DNA from: an uncultured Chloroflexia bacterium
Lineage (GTDB): Bacteria; Chloroflexota; Limnocylindria; Limnocylindrales; CSP1-4
Reading direction: 5' to 3'
Assembly: GCA_963813535.1 (NCBI GenBank)
Contig: CAWEZH010000002.1
Location: 608,001 to 672,000 of the forward strand
DNA length: 64,000 nt
Shown: piece after piece, positions 56,635 through 62,450 of the stretch
Numbering within the stretch: the first letter of the stretch is position 1
Layout: every line of letters begins with the position of its first letter
Position numbers and translations under genes: made by a program
Notes under the pieces: generated by a model
What the model was told of the DNA's origin: nothing
Database searches by the model: none
Seen by the model: only the letters and a program-made list of their open reading frames with translations

Positions 56635-58755
56635 TCAGTCGGGCAGGCTGGGCAGGAGCGGCGCGAGGTACGGCGCCAGGGCGCGGGCGAATGGCGTGGT
56701 CATGTGATGGGCGTCGCGATACACGAGCACGCGCCCGATGACTGCCGGGCACGGCTCCGTCGGGCACAGCCAGGGCGCGGGATCGATGAACGTCGCCCCC
56801 ATCTCGGCCGTCACCGCCTTCTCGGTCGCCGCCCGCTCGAGCCCGAGCGCCTTTGACATGGGCGTGGCGCACGCGAGCGCGTCGTCCAGGTGATCCGAGA
56901 GACAGACTGGCGCGTCTCTCGCCGGCCGGGGTGTGTCGCCGATGACGACGACGCGGTCGGCGACCTTCTCGATGGCCCGGATGGACCGCTCGAGTCCTGT
57001 CGCCCACAGATCCTCCCGGTCGCCCGATGGGACCGCGGCACCGTCGACCCAGAACTGGCCGGTCCGGCTGTCCGAGATCACCACCATCGCCGGCTTTTCG
57101 GCTCCGATGCGATCGAGGACGGCGGCCCGCCACGCATCGCACTCGGCGTACTCGCGCTTGAGTGCCGTGTTGTACACCGGGAGGTCGGCCACCGGACAGG
57201 CGGATTTCGTGAGTGAGATGAACCGCCAATCCTGCTCCTCGGCGAGGCGCTGGAGCGTGGGAAACCAGTGCGCCGCATGTGAATCACCGATCAGCACGAC
57301 CGTGCTCGACCCATCCGACCGCCCGTAGACGCAGTCGGGCGGGCTGGTCTCGCGCCACTCAGCGTGGCACGCGTCGGCGTAGATGACCGGGATGTCGTCG
57401 CGGACCGTCGCAAGCGGCGGGACGAGGTCGGCGGGGACCGGTCCACCAGGCGTCGGGGCGAGCGTCGGCTCGGCCGGCGGGCTGCTCGGGGGGCCGCTTG
57501 GCGGCGCCTGGGTGCCGCTCGGCGTCGCCAGCGTCGGGCTCGGTGTCGTCAGCTCGACCTCGACGTCGCCGGTATTCGGCGCTGCGGCCGTCGCCGGTAG
57601 GGCCACGACGCCTGCCCCGAGCGACACTCCCGCGACCAGCAGGCTGGTGACACCGGCGACCGCCAGCGATCTCGACGGTCGAAGCCTCGCAGCACCGCCG
57701 TGGCGGATCGGATCCTCGATCCAGCGCCTGCTCGCCTCGGCTAGCAGGAACGTCACCCCGACGAGCCCCAGCCGGACCGGCCCTGGCAACGCTGCGCCGA
57801 CGGCCGCCGCCGGGAGGACGAGCAGCGGCCAGTGCCACAGGTAGAGCGAGTACGAGATGCCGCCGATCCAGCGCATCGGGCGGATCGCGACGAGCCGCGA
57901 CAGCGGATTGAGTGGTTGCGGCAGCCCGCCGAGGATGACCAGCGCGGCGCCGACGACCGGCAGCAGGGCGGCTGTGCCCGGGAACGGCGTCGCGGTGTCG
58001 AAGACGACGCCACCGATGCCGATGAGCAGGAGACCGAGGGCGACCGAGGCCGTGGCGACCGACCCCGGCAGGCGCGCGAGACGGGTCATGCCCAGCGCCA
58101 GTGCGGCACCGACCGCCAGCTCCCAGGCACGTGACGGGAGGAGGAAGAACGCCAACGGCGCGTCGGTCGACGTCCAGACCAGACCGAGGACGAACGAGGC
58201 GATCGCGACGATCCCGACCGTCAGCCCGATCCGGCGCAGGACGACGCTGCGACCCGCGACGAGGAACAGGAGCGCCGGCCAGAAGAGGTAGAACTGCTCC
58301 TCGACGCCGAGCGACCAGAAGTGCAGCAGCGGTGACGGGTCCAGTTCCGCCTGCAGGTAGTCGGTCGCCTGCGCCGCGAAGCGGATGTTGCTGACGTACA
58401 GCGCCGCGGCCGCGCCATCGCCCGCGACATCGACCATGCGCAGCGGTGGCAGCACGATGGCCGAAGCGATGACGGTGACCGCGATGACCACGAGCGCCGC
58501 GGGCAGCAACCGTCGGGCGCGGCGGGCGTAGAACGCCGGCAGGTCGACCCGGCCGGTCGACTGCAGCTCGCGCACGATGAGCCCGGTGATCAGGAACCCG
58601 GAGACGACGTAGAAGACGTCGACGCCGATGTAGCCGCCCGTCAGCCCCGGGATGCGCGCGTGATACGCGAGCACGAGGAGGACGGCGATGGCGCGCAGGC
58701 CTTCGATATCGGGGCGGAACGGCGCGCGGGCGTCGTTCGGCGGGGGCGATGCCAC
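56635..58755 (-). CDS. Acyltransferase-3/SGNH fusion (OatA/OafA-like O-acetyltransferase)
   Basis: FRPDIEGLRA, GVDVFYVVSGFLI, HFWSLGVEEQFY, GDSHA, DAHH; TACCAT -10 lies 7 nt upstream of GTG 58755. Confidence 0.9.
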   Translation of the reverse strand: MASPPPNDARAPFRPDIEGLRAIAVLLVLAYHARIPGLTGGYIGVDVFYVVSGFLITGLIVRELQSTGRVDLPAFYARRARRLLPAALVVIAVTVIASAIVLPPLRMVDVAGDGAAAALYVSNIRFAAQATDYLQAELDPSPLLHFWSLGVEEQFYLFWPALLFLVAGRSVVLRRIGLTVGIVAIASFVLGLVWTSTDAPLAFFLLPSRAWELAVGAALALGMTRLARLPGSVATASVALGLLLIGIGGVVFDTATPFPGTAALLPVVGAALVILGGLPQPLNPLSRLVAIRPMRWIGGISYSLYLWHWPLLVLPAAAVGAALPGPVRLGLVGVTFLLAEASRRWIEDPIRHGGAARLRPSRSLAVAGVTSLLVAGVSLGAGVVALPATAAAPNTGDVEVELTTPSPTLATPSGTQAPPSGPPSSPPAEPTLAPTPGGPVPADLVPPLATVRDDIPVIYADACHAEWRETSPPDCVYGRSDGSSTVVLIGDSHAAHWFPTLQRLAEEQDWRFISLTKSACPVADLPVYNTALKREYAECDAWRAAVLDRIGAEKPAMVVISDSRTGQFWVDGAAVPSGDREDLWATGLERSIRAIEKVADRVVVIGDTPRPARDAPVCLSDHLDDALACATPMSKALGLERAATEKAVTAEMGATFIDPAPWLCPTEPCPAVIGRVLVYRDAHHMTTPFARALAPYLAPLLPSLPD

Positions 58756-58801
58756 GGATGGGATGGTACCCGCGCCGTGCTGGGTCGGTCCCCGATCGAG
58801 G

Positions 58802-58898
58802 CTTCGGGACATGAAAGTGCCCGAAGGAACTGGTCCGTAGCCCTCAGCATCGATGTAAACACCTATGCCGCTACTTGCGGTCCTGCCCCTTCGGGCAC
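58802..58898 (-). ncRNA. Putative structured small RNA, copy 1
   Basis: Rod hairpin UGCCCGAAGGGGC/GUUCCUUCGGGCA with apex GGUG-UUUA-CAUC; promoter-like motif directly upstream; paralog 252 bp away. Confidence 0.55.
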
Positions 58899-58903
58899 GA
58901 CCT

Positions 58904-58999
58904 ACGGTACGGCCGGGCCGTCCCCATGGGAAGCGATTTATCCACCAATTTCCAGATTCAGGGGTCGTTCTGGGTCGATCCGTCCACCGCCAATCCACC
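58904..58999 (-). promoter_or_regulatory. Sigma70-like promoter with three DnaA-box-like 9-mers, unit 1
   Basis: TTCCCA-N17-TACCGT; plus-strand TTATCCACC 58938, CCGTCCACC 58980, CAATCCACC 58991. Confidence 0.5.
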
Positions 59000-59053
59000 G
59001 TCTGGCGGTTCGCGACTGGACCGCGCACGACCCTGGGCCGGGTCGCGCTGGCG

Positions 59054-59150
59054 TCGGGCACAAGCAAATGCCCGAAGGAACTCGATCACTAGACGCTCCA
59101 ACCAATGTAAACACCGGTCAGATCGCTAGATGTTCGTGCCCCTTCGGGCA
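59054..59150 (-). ncRNA. Putative structured small RNA, copy 2
   Basis: Same terminal stem and GGUG-UUUA-CAUU apex; middle stem differs in sequence but still pairs. Confidence 0.55.
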
Positions 59151-59156
59151 GGTCCT

Positions 59157-59253
59157 ACGTTAGGCGACGCGTGCTTGCGGCGGCAAGAGGGTTATCCACT
59201 GATTTCATTGCAGATGAGACGCCACGCCGCCCGATGTCCACAGCGTCCCCACA
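59157..59253 (-). promoter_or_regulatory. Sigma70-like promoter with three DnaA-box-like 9-mers, unit 2
   Basis: TTGCCG-N18-TAACGT; plus-strand TTATCCACT 59192, ATGTCCACA 59234, GTCCCCACA 59245. Confidence 0.5.
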
Positions 59254-59276
59254 GTGGGCCTCGTCGGGGCGCGCCG

Positions 59277-59843
59277 TCAGGTCTCGAGCGGCCACGACAC
59301 CTCGTCGATCAGGGCCGGTCGCCCGTCATCCTCGACGGTGAACCGCCGCTCCTCGCTGCCGGCGGTGTCCCGCAGGTGCCAGGAATGCCGGGCGATGCGC
59401 TCGACGGCCCAGCGCGTCGGTCGGGGATCGAGTCCGTCGTCGATGCGCAGGATCTCCAGGGTCGCCGTGGCGCCCGCGACGACGCGACGCTCGAGACGTC
59501 TGACGGCGATCGTCGTCGAGGCCGGCGAGCCGATCACGAGGAGCTCATGCTCCGCGCTCCAGCGAAACGCCAGGTGACGTACGCCCGCGGCCGTGACCAC
59601 GTTCCCGTGGATCGCCGACTCGTCCCGCTCCGGATGCAGCGTCAGCAGTCCGGCCCGCGTCGTCATCTCGAGTCGCGTCGGCCGTCCGGCCGTGGAGGTC
59701 TCGAGCAACAGCGACCGCAGCAGCTGTCCATCCCGTTCGATCGACTCCCGCCAGCGCGTCCCCTTCGCGCCGTCGGCCTGGCTCCATGTGACGAGATCGC
59801 CGGTGCCGGTCCTCGCATGACCGCCACGACGGACGGATGCCAT
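59277..59843 (-). CDS. Hypothetical protein downstream of hflX
   Basis: 188-aa ORF 18 nt after the hflX stop with GAGG RBS; appears beta-rich. Confidence 0.7.
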   Translation of the reverse strand: MASVRRGGHARTGTGDLVTWSQADGAKGTRWRESIERDGQLLRSLLLETSTAGRPTRLEMTTRAGLLTLHPERDESAIHGNVVTAAGVRHLAFRWSAEHELLVIGSPASTTIAVRRLERRVVAGATATLEILRIDDGLDPRPTRWAVERIARHSWHLRDTAGSEERRFTVEDDGRPALIDEVSWPLET

Positions 59844-59861: not shown

Positions 59862-61202
59862 TCAGAGCCCCTGGCGGCCGGCGACGGCCGACGTCTCACC
59901 CGTGCCGTCGACCGCATCGGCCCAGCGAACTGCGGCGGACTCGAGCTCGCCGGCGAGCGAGGGGGCGACTCGGCCGCGGATCCGAACGTCGCGCTCGCGG
60001 TAGTCGATGTCGATGGTCCCCCGCTCACGGACGCGGGCCAGCAGCTCGCCGGCTGCATACGGCAAGGCGACGTCGACGTCGACCCAGAGCGACGCGAGGA
60101 CCGCGGCGATCTCGGCGCGCAGCGTCTCCATCCCGTAGCCGGTCAAGGCCGAGACGAAGACCGCGCCGGCGATGGACGGCGCCACGCCCGACCCGTTCGA
60201 TGCGGCATGGTCGATCAGGTCGGCCTTGTTGAAGACCACGAGCCGCGGCTTGTCTCCCGCCCCGAGCTCGTCGAGCACGGTCTGGACGGTCGTCCGGTGC
60301 TCGTCGACATGGGCATCGGAGGCATCGACGACCTCGAGCAGCACGTCGGCGCGATTGACCTCCTCGAGCGTGGCTCGGAACGCGTCGACGAGCTGGTGCG
60401 GCAGCTTGTGGATGAAACCGACGGTGTCCGTGACGATCGCGGTCTGGCCGTCGCCGAGCTTGACCTGGCGGCTCGTCGGATCGAGCGTCGCGAACAGCTT
60501 GTCCTCCGCGCGCGCGACCTCGGAGCCCACCAGGGTGTTGAGCAGGGTCGATTTCCCGGCATTCGTGTACCCGACGATGCCGACGGTCGGCCACAGGCGC
60601 CGGTCGCGGCCGCGTGCGGCCGTGGCTCGATGCTGACGGACCTGCTCCACGCGATCCTTCATCTTGGCGATCCGCGTCCGGATCACGCGCCGGTCGGTCT
60701 CGAGCTGGCTCTCGCCTGGTCCGCGCGACCCGATACCACCCTGGGTCCGCGACAGGTGGGTCCACAAGCGGGTCAGGCGCGGCAACTGGTATTCGAGCTG
60801 GGCGAGCTCGACCTGGAGCCGGCCCTCGTGCGTCTGCGCATGCAGGGCGAAGATGTCGAGGATCAGCCGGCTGCGGTCGATGACCTTGACACGCAACAGC
60901 TCCTCCAGGGAGCGCTGCTGGGCGGGTGACAGCTCGTCATCGGCGATGAGCACGTCGAAGCCGGTCTCCCGCCGAGCCGCCGCGAGGTCCTCGGCCTTGC
61001 CCTTGCCGATGTACCAGTTCGGGTCGACGTGCCGGCGGTTCTGCCATTCCGCGCCGACCACGTCGGCACCGGCCGTCGTAGCGAGGTTCGCGAGCTCGGA
61101 GAGGGACTCCTGGGCGGTCCAGCCGTCCTCGCCACCGGTGTCGACGGCGACCAGGAAGGCCTTCTCGACCGGTGGTTCGAGGTCGATGAGGTGTCGTGCC
61201 AT
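59862..61202 (-). CDS. hflX: Ribosome-splitting GTPase HflX
   Basis: YIGKGK, GGIGSRGPGESQLETDRR, GYTNAGKST, FATLDPT, DTVGFI, NKAD. Confidence 0.97.
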   Translation of the reverse strand: MARHLIDLEPPVEKAFLVAVDTGGEDGWTAQESLSELANLATTAGADVVGAEWQNRRHVDPNWYIGKGKAEDLAAARRETGFDVLIADDELSPAQQRSLEELLRVKVIDRSRLILDIFALHAQTHEGRLQVELAQLEYQLPRLTRLWTHLSRTQGGIGSRGPGESQLETDRRVIRTRIAKMKDRVEQVRQHRATAARGRDRRLWPTVGIVGYTNAGKSTLLNTLVGSEVARAEDKLFATLDPTSRQVKLGDGQTAIVTDTVGFIHKLPHQLVDAFRATLEEVNRADVLLEVVDASDAHVDEHRTTVQTVLDELGAGDKPRLVVFNKADLIDHAASNGSGVAPSIAGAVFVSALTGYGMETLRAEIAAVLASLWVDVDVALPYAAGELLARVRERGTIDIDYRERDVRIRGRVAPSLAGELESAAVRWADAVDGTGETSAVAGRQGL

Positions 61203-61291
61203 GCGGCTGCAGGATACCGGTAACGTCCTCGTGCAGCCGCTGACGCTCCTGCAAGCCCGCGCGGTCACCATCGATATCGAGGAGGTGCCTG

Positions 61292-61504
61292 ATGACCGAT
61301 GCCCGCCTGCACAGCACCAAGCCGATCGATGACGAAGTCCCGTTCGCAGACGCCGTCGACGTTCCCGGCGAGGAAGCGCCGGCCGACGAAGACGCCCTCG
61401 TGACCCCGGCCGCGGCCGAGCGCGACCGGACCATGCCCGACCGGGACGTGGAACCGTCGGGCCGTCAGACCGACGATCTCGGCGAAGACAAGCGGGACGC
61501 CTGA
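61292..61504 (+). CDS. Small acidic hypothetical protein
   Basis: Strong GGAGGTG RBS; 70 aa Asp/Glu/Pro-rich; overlaps the miaA 3' end by 40 nt. Confidence 0.5.
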   Translation: MTDARLHSTKPIDDEVPFADAVDVPGEEAPADEDALVTPAAAERDRTMPDRDVEPSGRQTDDLGEDKRDA

Positions 61505-62430
61505 CCCGAGCTGACCGCCCGCGCGAGTTCGACCGCCTTGTCGAACGGATCCCCCGTCGCCTCCAGCCAGGTGACGTCTGGCTCCGCACGGAACCAGGTC
61601 CGCTGTCGCTTCGCGAACGCGACATTCCGTCTCGCGTCCTCCTCGATCGCGTGCTCGCGGGTCATGGTCGCGTCGGCGACGGACCACGCCTCCCGATAGC
61701 CGATCGCCGAGAACGCCGGTAGCGTCGGGTCGAAGCGCTCTCGGAGCGCGACGGCCTCGTCGACCAGGCCTGCGTCGAGCTGGGACCGTGCCCGTGCCGC
61801 GATACGGCGCCGATGCTCTGCCCCTTCGACGTCGAGCCCGATCCAGGTCACAGGACCGTCATACCCACGCGGCCGAGGCCGCGGACCATCGCCGCGCAAT
61901 TCGGCGATCTCGAGGGCGCGGATCACGCGCCGCGGGTTGGCCAAGTGGACCTCCGCCGCGAGTGCGGGGGCCTTCGCCTGGAGCCGGGCTGCCAGGGGTT
62001 CGAGGCCCTCGGCGGCGAACTCCGCTTCGAGACGGGCGCGGACGGCGGGGTCATCGGGCAGTGCGTCAAGGTCGAGCCCGCGCGCGACGGCACGCAGGTA
62101 CAGACCCGTGCCGCCGACCAGCAGCGCCACCCCGTCGCGTGCCGCCACGTCCCGCAGGACGCCGGTCGCGTGCGCCACGTAGTCGGAGACCGCGAAACGC
62201 TCGTCGGGGTCGACGAGGTCGAGGCCCTCGTGCGGGACGCGCCCACGATCCGCGACCGAGACCTTGGCCGTGCCGATATCGAGGCCGCGATACACCTGTC
62301 GCGAGTCGGCCGAGATGACGGTGGCGGGTCGCCCCGACGCGATCAGCCACTCCCCGAGCCGGATGCCGAGCTCGGTCTTGCCGGTCGCGGTCGGACCCGC
62401 GACGACGATGAGCGGTGGCAGGCTCCCCAT
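61465..62430 (-). CDS. miaA: tRNA dimethylallyltransferase
   Basis: GPTATGKT, SADSRQVYRGLDIGTAK, VGGTGLY, RRVIRALE, AIGY, AKRQRTWF. Confidence 0.97.
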   Translation of the reverse strand: MGSLPPLIVVAGPTATGKTELGIRLGEWLIASGRPATVISADSRQVYRGLDIGTAKVSVADRGRVPHEGLDLVDPDERFAVSDYVAHATGVLRDVAARDGVALLVGGTGLYLRAVARGLDLDALPDDPAVRARLEAEFAAEGLEPLAARLQAKAPALAAEVHLANPRRVIRALEIAELRGDGPRPRPRGYDGPVTWIGLDVEGAEHRRRIAARARSQLDAGLVDEAVALRERFDPTLPAFSAIGYREAWSVADATMTREHAIEEDARRNVAFAKRQRTWFRAEPDVTWLEATGDPFDKAVELARAVSSGQASRLSSPRSSV

Positions 62431-62450
62431 GGCCGCATACTGCACGGCCG

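Follow-up and report, generated by a model that had tools for sequence, protein, structure and literature searches.

The question raised by this locus is what kind of element is formed by two similar units, here named A and B, on the minus strand between positions 58802 and 59150 of a 64,000-nucleotide (nt) stretch of DNA from an uncultured Chloroflexia bacterium (contig CAWEZH010000002.1, positions 608,001 to 672,000; hereafter, the window). An initial annotation, made without database searches, had described them as a tandem pair of unrecognized structured RNAs. In this work, we found that A and B are paralogs of a previously undescribed, lineage-specific family of small structured RNAs in Limnocylindria-type Chloroflexota. 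Judging from the sequence, we lean with moderate confidence towards the reading that A and B are self-terminating small protein-binding RNAs, probably under the control of DnaA.

Unit A (59061..59150) consists of an 82-nt rod (59150-59069) followed by the U-rich tail UUUGCUUG (59068-59061), and unit B (58810..58897) of an 80-nt rod (58897-58818) followed by the tail CUUUCAUG (58817-58810). Both start with a U, at positions 59150 and 58897, respectively, and their spacing is 253/252 nt; the start proposed earlier for B, 58898, is the preceding G. The two units are identical in the 5' arm UGCCCGAAGGGGC, the 3' arm GUUCCUUCGGGCA (59081-59069 in A and 58830-58818 in B), and the apex GGUGUUUACAU. 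Each of these motifs occurs exactly twice in the window, and 0.09 chance matches are expected there for the apex. Over a 97-nt stretch, A folds with -49.9 kcal/mol (z -6.14) and B with -46.6 kcal/mol (z -5.07), and none of 200 shuffles was as good in either case. Both rods are nearly fully paired, with a 4-nt loop and a few bulges only. Sequence and folding thus bear out the description of two minus-strand rods of ~80 nt with an identical 13-bp base and apex. The assignment of the fold to the minus strand also stands, as the plus-strand folds are weaker (-35.6 kcal/mol and z -3.9 for A; -36.9 kcal/mol and z -3.1 for B) and the G-U wobbles are conserved. In a pairwise alignment, the likeness of the two units continues ~50 nt upstream into the promoter block. 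A and B align collinearly over their full length; they are diverged paralogs and not a recent duplication. Nor are they a local duplication, as the term tandem pair would suggest: their divergence is ancient, and they represent two (A and B) out of five or more types in a larger family.

The rod fold of A and B is under selection. In the type A alignment (15 sequences, 35 pairs), 99.0% of the cells are paired and 11 pairs have changed on both sides; in the type B alignment (24 sequences, 30 pairs), the corresponding values are 97.1% and 11 double-changed pairs (54 cells). None of 500 column shuffles reached the observed percentage of pairing or the covariation score in either type, and sliding the partner by 1-3 columns reduced pairing to 36-48% of the cells. 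The covariation claimed earlier from the two copies is thereby found across species in both types, as compensatory changes that keep a common fold. These changes are located mostly in the variable upper stem. The 13-bp base is nearly invariant, with A-U to G-C exchanges seen in type C. Its G-U pairs at positions 11 and 12 are both present in 24/24 type B sequences and in 14/15 and 15/15 type A sequences, respectively. Since such pairs would be A-C mismatches on the opposite strand, the RNA strand is the promoter strand.

The genome from which the window derives (G000; 3.28 Mb in three contigs, 92.9% complete) contains five family members, namely A, B, and one each of types C, D, and E, which share the promoter and both ends and differ in their interiors. 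Type C is located at C3:115630 (minus strand) and type E at C2:1795698 (plus strand). Type D (L005:1497-1689 (-), equivalent to G000:C3:399601-399793, minus strand) is a branched RNA of 185 nt that folds with -136 kcal/mol (z -7.2) and has three inner hairpins capped by GCGA, GCAA, and CUUG. One genome per species was then scanned for a pattern that included the promoter box, which gave at least 120 stretches. The matches listed were nearly all from metagenome-assembled genomes labeled as Candidatus Limnocylindrales/Limnocylindria, Chloroflexota, or uncultured Chloroflexia, and the idea of an actinobacterial small RNA was dropped. Matches outside Chloroflexota (Klebsiella, Desulfobacter, Terriglobia, and others) lacked the 3' arm and were rejected as chance matches. 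At least 166 distinct members were extracted from 169 loci. Measured from the first base through the 3' arm, most are 70-89 nt long, and others have ~110, 140, or 180 nt.

For the search of related genomes that the initial annotation had suggested, a covariance model (R1) was built from 50 A/B-like rods. In the own genome, R1 matched A with 86.2 bits (G000:C2:667061-667150), B with 79.2 bits (C2:666810-666897), and also C and E. At least one member was found in 91 of the 151 sampled genomes of the class, with a distribution by family of 42/44 in f1, 48/50 in f4, 0/6 in f2 (small genomes of 1.1 Mb), 0/49 in f3, and 0/1 in f5, the overall and f4 tallies resting partly on the unpublished genomes G156, G122, and G131. 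About 15 genomes have two R1 matches at most ~1.1 kb apart, which indicates that the pairing of A and B is old. No copies were found in the viral contigs searched. In the relatives L035, L142, L162, L136, and L058, two or three apex modules (GGUGCUUGCAUC or GCGAUCACAUCAA) are enclosed within one closing stem, such that the family looks like a fixed chassis with exchangeable modules.

Each unit is preceded by a sigma-70-like promoter, a type common to all members. The promoter of A (59157..59186, minus strand) has the -35 element TTGCCG (59186-59181), an 18-nt spacer, and the -10 element TAACGT (59162-59157), and that of B (58904..58932, minus strand) has TTCCCA (58932-58927), a 17-nt spacer, and TACCGT (58909-58904). 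The 5' arm starts 6-7 nt past the -10 element in both. These elements are as initially described, and their layout is conserved in 153 family members: TCGTGGATAA, five bases, a -35 element (TTGACC/TTGCCG/CTTCCC), ~17 nt, TAnnGT, AGGTCTT, and the 5' arm. The promoters also carry DnaA-box-like motifs, all on the minus strand at this locus, which had gone unnoticed in the initial annotation. The proximal box GTGGATAA is found at 59192..59199 in A, 5 nt upstream of the -35 element, and at 58938..58945 in B, as seen from the sequence and the family logo. Two distal boxes are located 53 and 42 nt upstream of the proximal box (TGTGGGGAC at 59253-59245 and TGTGGACAT at 59242-59234 in A; GTGGATTG at 58998-58991 and GTGGACGG at 58987-58980 in B). 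Across the family, the distance from the box to the 5' arm is 48-50 nt in 143/153 members, and 116 of the 122 rods collected via the two arms alone have GTGGA(T/C)(A/G)A (GTGGATAA, GTGGACAA, or GTGGACGA) where the box is expected, and near-variants are among the other six. Both frequencies are biased upward, as most loci had been fetched with the box-containing pattern. Type B promoters have further same-strand boxes at the fixed positions -42 and -53 (consensus YCGTGGAYGG, TGTGGACAA), and at least one extra same-strand box within 150 nt is present in 31/33 of them, compared with 6% of random background windows. Type A promoters have the same distal layout, and in types C and E the boxes are on the other strand. 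No box-like sequence was seen inside the family RNAs.

When reverse-complemented, the motifs TGTGGATAA and TGTGGACAA correspond to the classical DnaA boxes TTATCCACA and TTGTCCACA. The same variants cluster at dnaA-dnaN: in the 400 nt downstream of dnaA from 24 family genomes, we found 9.7 boxes per kb, compared with 0.73 per kb in the dnaA coding sequence. At least one box is present in 20 of these 24 spacers, with GTGGACGG seen 22 times, GTGGACAA 21 times, GTGGACGA 17 times, and GTGGATAA 7 times. Because the promoter boxes match the reverse-complemented consensus and the same motif is clustered at the probable origin of the organism, they are quite probably DnaA boxes. Their position just upstream of the -35 element suggests activation. 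In the own genome, the dnaA-dnaN spacer (G000:C3:884500-884850; L169), which is probably oriC, has three to four GTGGAC-type boxes and an AT-richer stretch, and rpmH is located upstream of dnaA. An origin at the A/B locus itself was rejected, as the GC skew is flat and uninformative there and dnaA, rpmH, and dnaN are located elsewhere (~C3:883 kb).

In the whole genome, GTGGATAA occurs 11 times compared with 23 predicted from composition. Four of these sites are the proximal boxes of A-D, two belong to box clusters beside the type E and type C promoters, two are upstream of parA, and two are at the promoter of rsmG (gidB), one of them in the same promoter layout; no link was found for the site at C3:924074. 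A looser motif, GTGGA[TC][AGC]A, has 765 matches genome-wide and was discarded as too frequent in coding DNA. The rsmG (gidB)-like gene (G000:C3:952575 (-)) shows the same arrangement of box, -35, and -10 elements followed by a ~200-nt leader, and the boxes upstream of parA (G000:C2:296768/296796) include a perfect TTATCCACA; both genes were identified by eye from translated N-terminal motifs only. DnaA control of gidAB-parAB is reported for Pseudomonas aeruginosa (PMC13438810), and an interaction of DnaA with RNA is proposed for the Escherichia coli his leader (PMC10989985).

The units do not correspond to any known RNA that we looked for, in agreement with the initial statement that the motif was unrecognized. 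A search of the whole window against Rfam 15 gave no match at the gathering level; locally, only mir-671, ceN58, and sR47 appeared as noise (E 1.6-5.9), far below the thresholds. No relevant Rfam match was found at the C, D, and E loci of the own genome. Among specific candidates, tRNA and tmRNA were rejected because ARAGORN finds nothing in 58500-59500, and the signal recognition particle RNA is located elsewhere (C2:38894-38993). For 6S RNA, RF00013 has no match at E<=1 in the genome, and the rods are almost fully paired without a central bubble. For Y RNA, the Ro/TROVE domain (PF05731) was not found in the 92.9%-complete genome and no Rfam family, including Y RNA, is below E 1.6 locally. 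A sponge of the CsrB/RsmZ type was rejected, as CsrA (PF02599) was not found in this genome and the loops of A and B are free of GGA; three GGA motifs do occur in type C, but the genome yielded no CsrA that could bind them. An Hfq-dependent small RNA (sRNA) is likewise unsupported, as Hfq (PF17209) was not found, a result that does not prove absence at this level of completeness. A retron was also considered in view of the a1/a2-like ends; no reverse transcriptase domain was present among ten flanking open reading frames (ORFs) scanned against Pfam around the five own-genome copies. In the literature, with most subscription journals outside reach, we found no description of a small RNA in Limnocylindria or of this RNA.

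These results suggest a model for how the units may work. Each unit would be transcribed from its own sigma-70-type promoter with a predicted start at the first base of the 5' arm, and DnaA would probably control this transcription via the phased boxes, with TCGTGGATAA abutting the -35 element and a further pair of boxes at 42 and 53 nt upstream of it. Within the transcript, the initial 13 nt (UGCCCGAAGGGGC) would pair with the last 13 nt (GUUCCUUCGGGCR), closing a rod, or a branched body in other family members, around a variable payload. The closing stem is GC-rich and is followed by a U-rich tract (family consensus GGGCG-UUUUCGUG with the tail GUUUUCGUG; here UUUGCUUG and CUUUCAUG), and together these most likely represent the intrinsic terminator of the RNA itself. 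The product would be a blunt-ended RNA of ~85-90 nt. Termination after the rods is likely but leaky, so some transcripts would enter the next gene. As A and B are nearly fully double-stranded with invariant sequence inside the helices, they probably act through recognition by a protein (as decoy, scaffold, or substrate) rather than through seed pairing. The initial idea of a decoy that presents the apex to a protein is speculative. In type A, CAUCUAGUGAUC is invariant and present on both arms, where it builds a symmetric duplex from which two U bulge out; in type B, GACCGMAAG/CUACGGACC is invariant inside the helix. Both types share the apex consensus GGUG-YUUR-CAUY and two invariant G-U wobbles in the base.

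Transcript data for the locus come from metatranscriptomes. Short contigs from four runs (three studies) cover B (58745-58909, 58732-58883, 58747-58876, and 58791-59048), and two of these libraries also give partial coverage of A, at 58961-59136 and, with a fragment of 32 nt, at 59081-59112. Such contigs document presence in RNA libraries rather than transcript ends, and they could derive from DNA carry-over. The contig ends near 58745 coincide with strain-variant positions, and we drew no conclusion about the 3' end from them. No contig covers 59140-59400 in these four runs, which proves nothing. A promoter/terminator consensus scan gave no matches with criteria too strict for a GC-rich organism.

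To compare the surroundings of the family members, the flanking proteins from the own genome were searched in the 169 loci by tblastn, with gene families assigned by Pfam. Types A and B are placed after hflX (48/169 loci) and a 188-aa ORF, here named p188 (40/169), and before a PALP enzyme gene (23/169). Type C is located between moaA (46 loci) and PNP_UDP_1 (43 loci), type D has a Rieske/DUF2231 gene on one side (11 loci) and an MFS gene on the other (9 loci), and type E precedes a 299-aa membrane ORF (7 loci). In the window, an AT3-SGNH (OafA-like) acyltransferase gene (56635-58755, minus strand) is inserted between B and the PALP gene. This gene is present in 8/169 loci, of which four cover this very position in the own genome and the other four stem from different genomes; elsewhere, PALP directly follows B. 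Its GTG start at 58755 is preceded by TACCAT at 7 nt and has no Shine-Dalgarno sequence, consistent with the earlier description of the gene as leaderless.

The p188 gene (59277-59843, minus strand) belongs to no Pfam family. Its AlphaFold2 model (pLDDT 94.2) has a DUF1089-like beta-barrel fold, and the best Foldseek match is PA1994 (2h1t; E 2.7e-7). Upstream, miaA and hflX are adjacent (59862-62445, minus strand), as in the proteobacterial miaA-hfq-hflX cluster, with no hfq in between; miaA was assigned by eye from its N-terminal motif only. At the C locus, a second, highly conserved structured element (L002:1335-1383 (-), equivalent to G000:C3 ~115452-115500) lies between the type C RNA and PNP_UDP_1, ~45 nt before the Shine-Dalgarno sequence of the latter. 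Its sequence, GCCCGACGGGACGYGAUCGGCAUCCCGGUGUCGAUACUUCCGUCGGGC, also has no Rfam match and may represent a novel riboswitch or leader.

Several observations weigh against the reading of A and B as self-terminating, DnaA-controlled, protein-binding RNAs. The U tracts are short (3-4 U), and a simple terminator scan finds nothing at either unit. The RNA-library contigs, at a depth of 2-4, run ~70 nt past the U tract of B, and one spans its promoter. In relatives, PALP starts 27-70 nt past the tail of B, without room for a promoter, and each of the five members in the own genome is followed at 30-170 nt by a co-oriented gene. The genome yielded none of the RNA-binding proteins Hfq, CsrA, and Ro/TROVE. 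Nor is p188 a likely partner: it is present in 21 of 44 sampled f1 genomes and in 0/50 f4 genomes, where the RNA is present in 48/50, and it was thus rejected as an obligate partner. Furthermore, the box frequencies carry the upward bias noted above, and the 11-nt direct repeats would also fit a response regulator of the OmpR/PhoB type.

The main rival, which we consider possible if on the unlikely side, is that the rods act in cis as modules of the 5' leaders of the downstream genes, either attenuating transcription or stabilizing the 5' end, and that the short RNA is a by-product. Under this explanation, the promoters would drive PALP (here, acyltransferase and PALP) for B, PNP_UDP_1 for C, the MFS transporter for D, and the membrane protein for E, and the base stem and U tract would form a regulated or leaky terminator. 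The close co-oriented genes, the contigs that extend past the U tract of B, and the uncalled terminator are in its favor. So is the PALP gene of relatives, which often has a Shine-Dalgarno-like run (GGAGG or GGGGG-like) and no recognizable promoter, and the second element at the C locus suggests one long leader there. However, A is followed by the promoter of B rather than by a gene. The own-genome genes after B, D, and E have TANNNT 7 nt before GTG and no Shine-Dalgarno sequence; as they are of the leaderless type, read-through RNA would be poorly translated. The gene after B also varies by lineage (acyltransferase in 8 loci, PALP elsewhere), and the RNA is kept in both situations. Moreover, the interiors of the paralogs differ, such that a common ligand pocket is not possible. 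The initial proposal that the units are independent transcripts is accordingly supported by the promoter of each unit and by the position of A, and is uncertain for B given the short distance to PALP.

The initial annotation had also described a conserved alternative fold. Both arms are quasi-palindromic around GAAG/CUUC, and past the U tract lies a shortened repeat of the 5' arm (YGYCCG...): GUCCCGAAG (58802..58810, minus strand) can pair with the 3' arm of B, and UGCCCGA (59054..59060, minus strand) with that of A. In 55 of 121 members (45%), compared with 12% of shuffled tails, the last bases of the 3' arm have a 6/6 complement 4-14 nt downstream, and this enrichment is a further point in favor of a leader. 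The alternative fold is possible in principle and is partly borne out, but it is the weaker one and evidence for a switch was not found: with the 5' hairpin enforced, the energy changes from -60.1 to -52.7 kcal/mol in A (7.4 worse) and from -55.0 to -39.8 kcal/mol in B (~15 worse). As the partner is located after the U tract, it cannot prevent termination in the manner of a classical antiterminator, which speaks against a leader. A design with two partners would be compatible with the invariant G-U pairs, as their G can also pair with C of the 5' hairpin and their U with A of certain downstream copies.

It is more doubtful that the family represents trans-acting base-pairing sRNAs, with GGUG-YUUR-CAUY as the seed in A/B and the 13-nt loop in C/E. 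In types C and E, a covarying 4-bp stem does close a 13-nt loop of invariant sequence (GAGAUYRCAUCAA), as is typical of seeds. Furthermore, the units have promoters of their own and ends that resemble terminators, and the presence of several paralogs per genome is reminiscent of sibling sRNAs. However, A and B have almost no single-stranded bases, neither Hfq nor another known matchmaker was found in the genome, and by a hand estimate a 13-mer with at most two mismatches is expected ~70 times by chance in the genome. Finally, a DNA-level element, either a palindrome of the repetitive extragenic palindrome or miniature inverted-repeat transposable element type, as raised in the initial annotation, or a DnaA-box cluster for titration (datA/DARS-like) with an incidental hairpin, is very improbable and is largely refuted by copy number and covariation: the quasi-palindromic arms, the three phased DnaA-box-like motifs at the locus, and the weaker plus-strand fold agree with it, but there are only five copies in 3.28 Mb, each type in conserved synteny and none in viral contigs, the compensatory changes preserve RNA pairing, the invariant G-U pairs would turn into A-C mismatches on the opposite strand, and titration by the boxes, although possible, does not explain the covariation of the RNA.

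Protein-binding RNAs that terminate themselves and probably respond to DnaA thus remain our preferred reading of A and B. A wider version, namely a DnaA-commanded regulon of at least five modular chassis RNAs tied to the initiator via phased boxes, is a speculative extension that we consider unlikely. If true, these RNAs would couple the state of replication or the cell cycle to metabolism, or feed back on DnaA, and this kind of circuit from initiator to RNA is not known to have been described in any phylum. Limnocylindria, which are uncultured, are abundant in soil and fresh water. The family would be the first candidate RNA family of this class; it is well supported by covariation and nearly universal in the sampled f1 and f4 genomes. 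Its architecture is unusual, in that the first and last 13 nt of the transcript would form one fixed stem around swappable hairpin modules. If DnaA drives the copies, the replication initiator would be linked to a set of regulatory RNAs. The alignments and the model suffice to seed an Rfam family.

Compared with known systems, the family has partial likenesses to several. Sibling sRNA families such as Qrr, PrrF, and csRNAs have a common promoter and regulator. The RNAs described here resemble them in having several paralogs per genome, an own promoter with a common regulator site, and a terminator-like 3' end; they differ in that A and B, as near-perfect rods, expose no open seed, half of the terminator stem is formed by the 5' end itself, the shared site is DnaA-box-like, no Hfq was found, and no sequence or Rfam relation was found. 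With Y RNA and 6S RNA, they share the long closing stem formed by the 5' and 3' ends and the conservation of sequence inside helices, but A and B lack a central bubble or tRNA-like module and the genome yielded no TROVE/Ro gene. With DnaA-regulated promoters and box clusters (dnaA, gidAB-parAB, datA/DARS, and those of Bacillus subtilis), they share 8-9-mers that match TGTGGATAA/TGTGGACAA and are phased by 11 and 42 nt, the occurrence of the same variants at the dnaA-dnaN spacer, and boxes upstream of parA and rsmG; in contrast, the controlled genes here would be a small structured RNA family, for which we found no such paper. Lastly, as in intrinsic terminators and attenuators, a GC-rich stem is followed by a U-rich tract and there is a competing downstream pairing segment; unlike in those systems, the tract is short and uncalled, the competitor lies after it, and the stem spans the whole transcript from +1.

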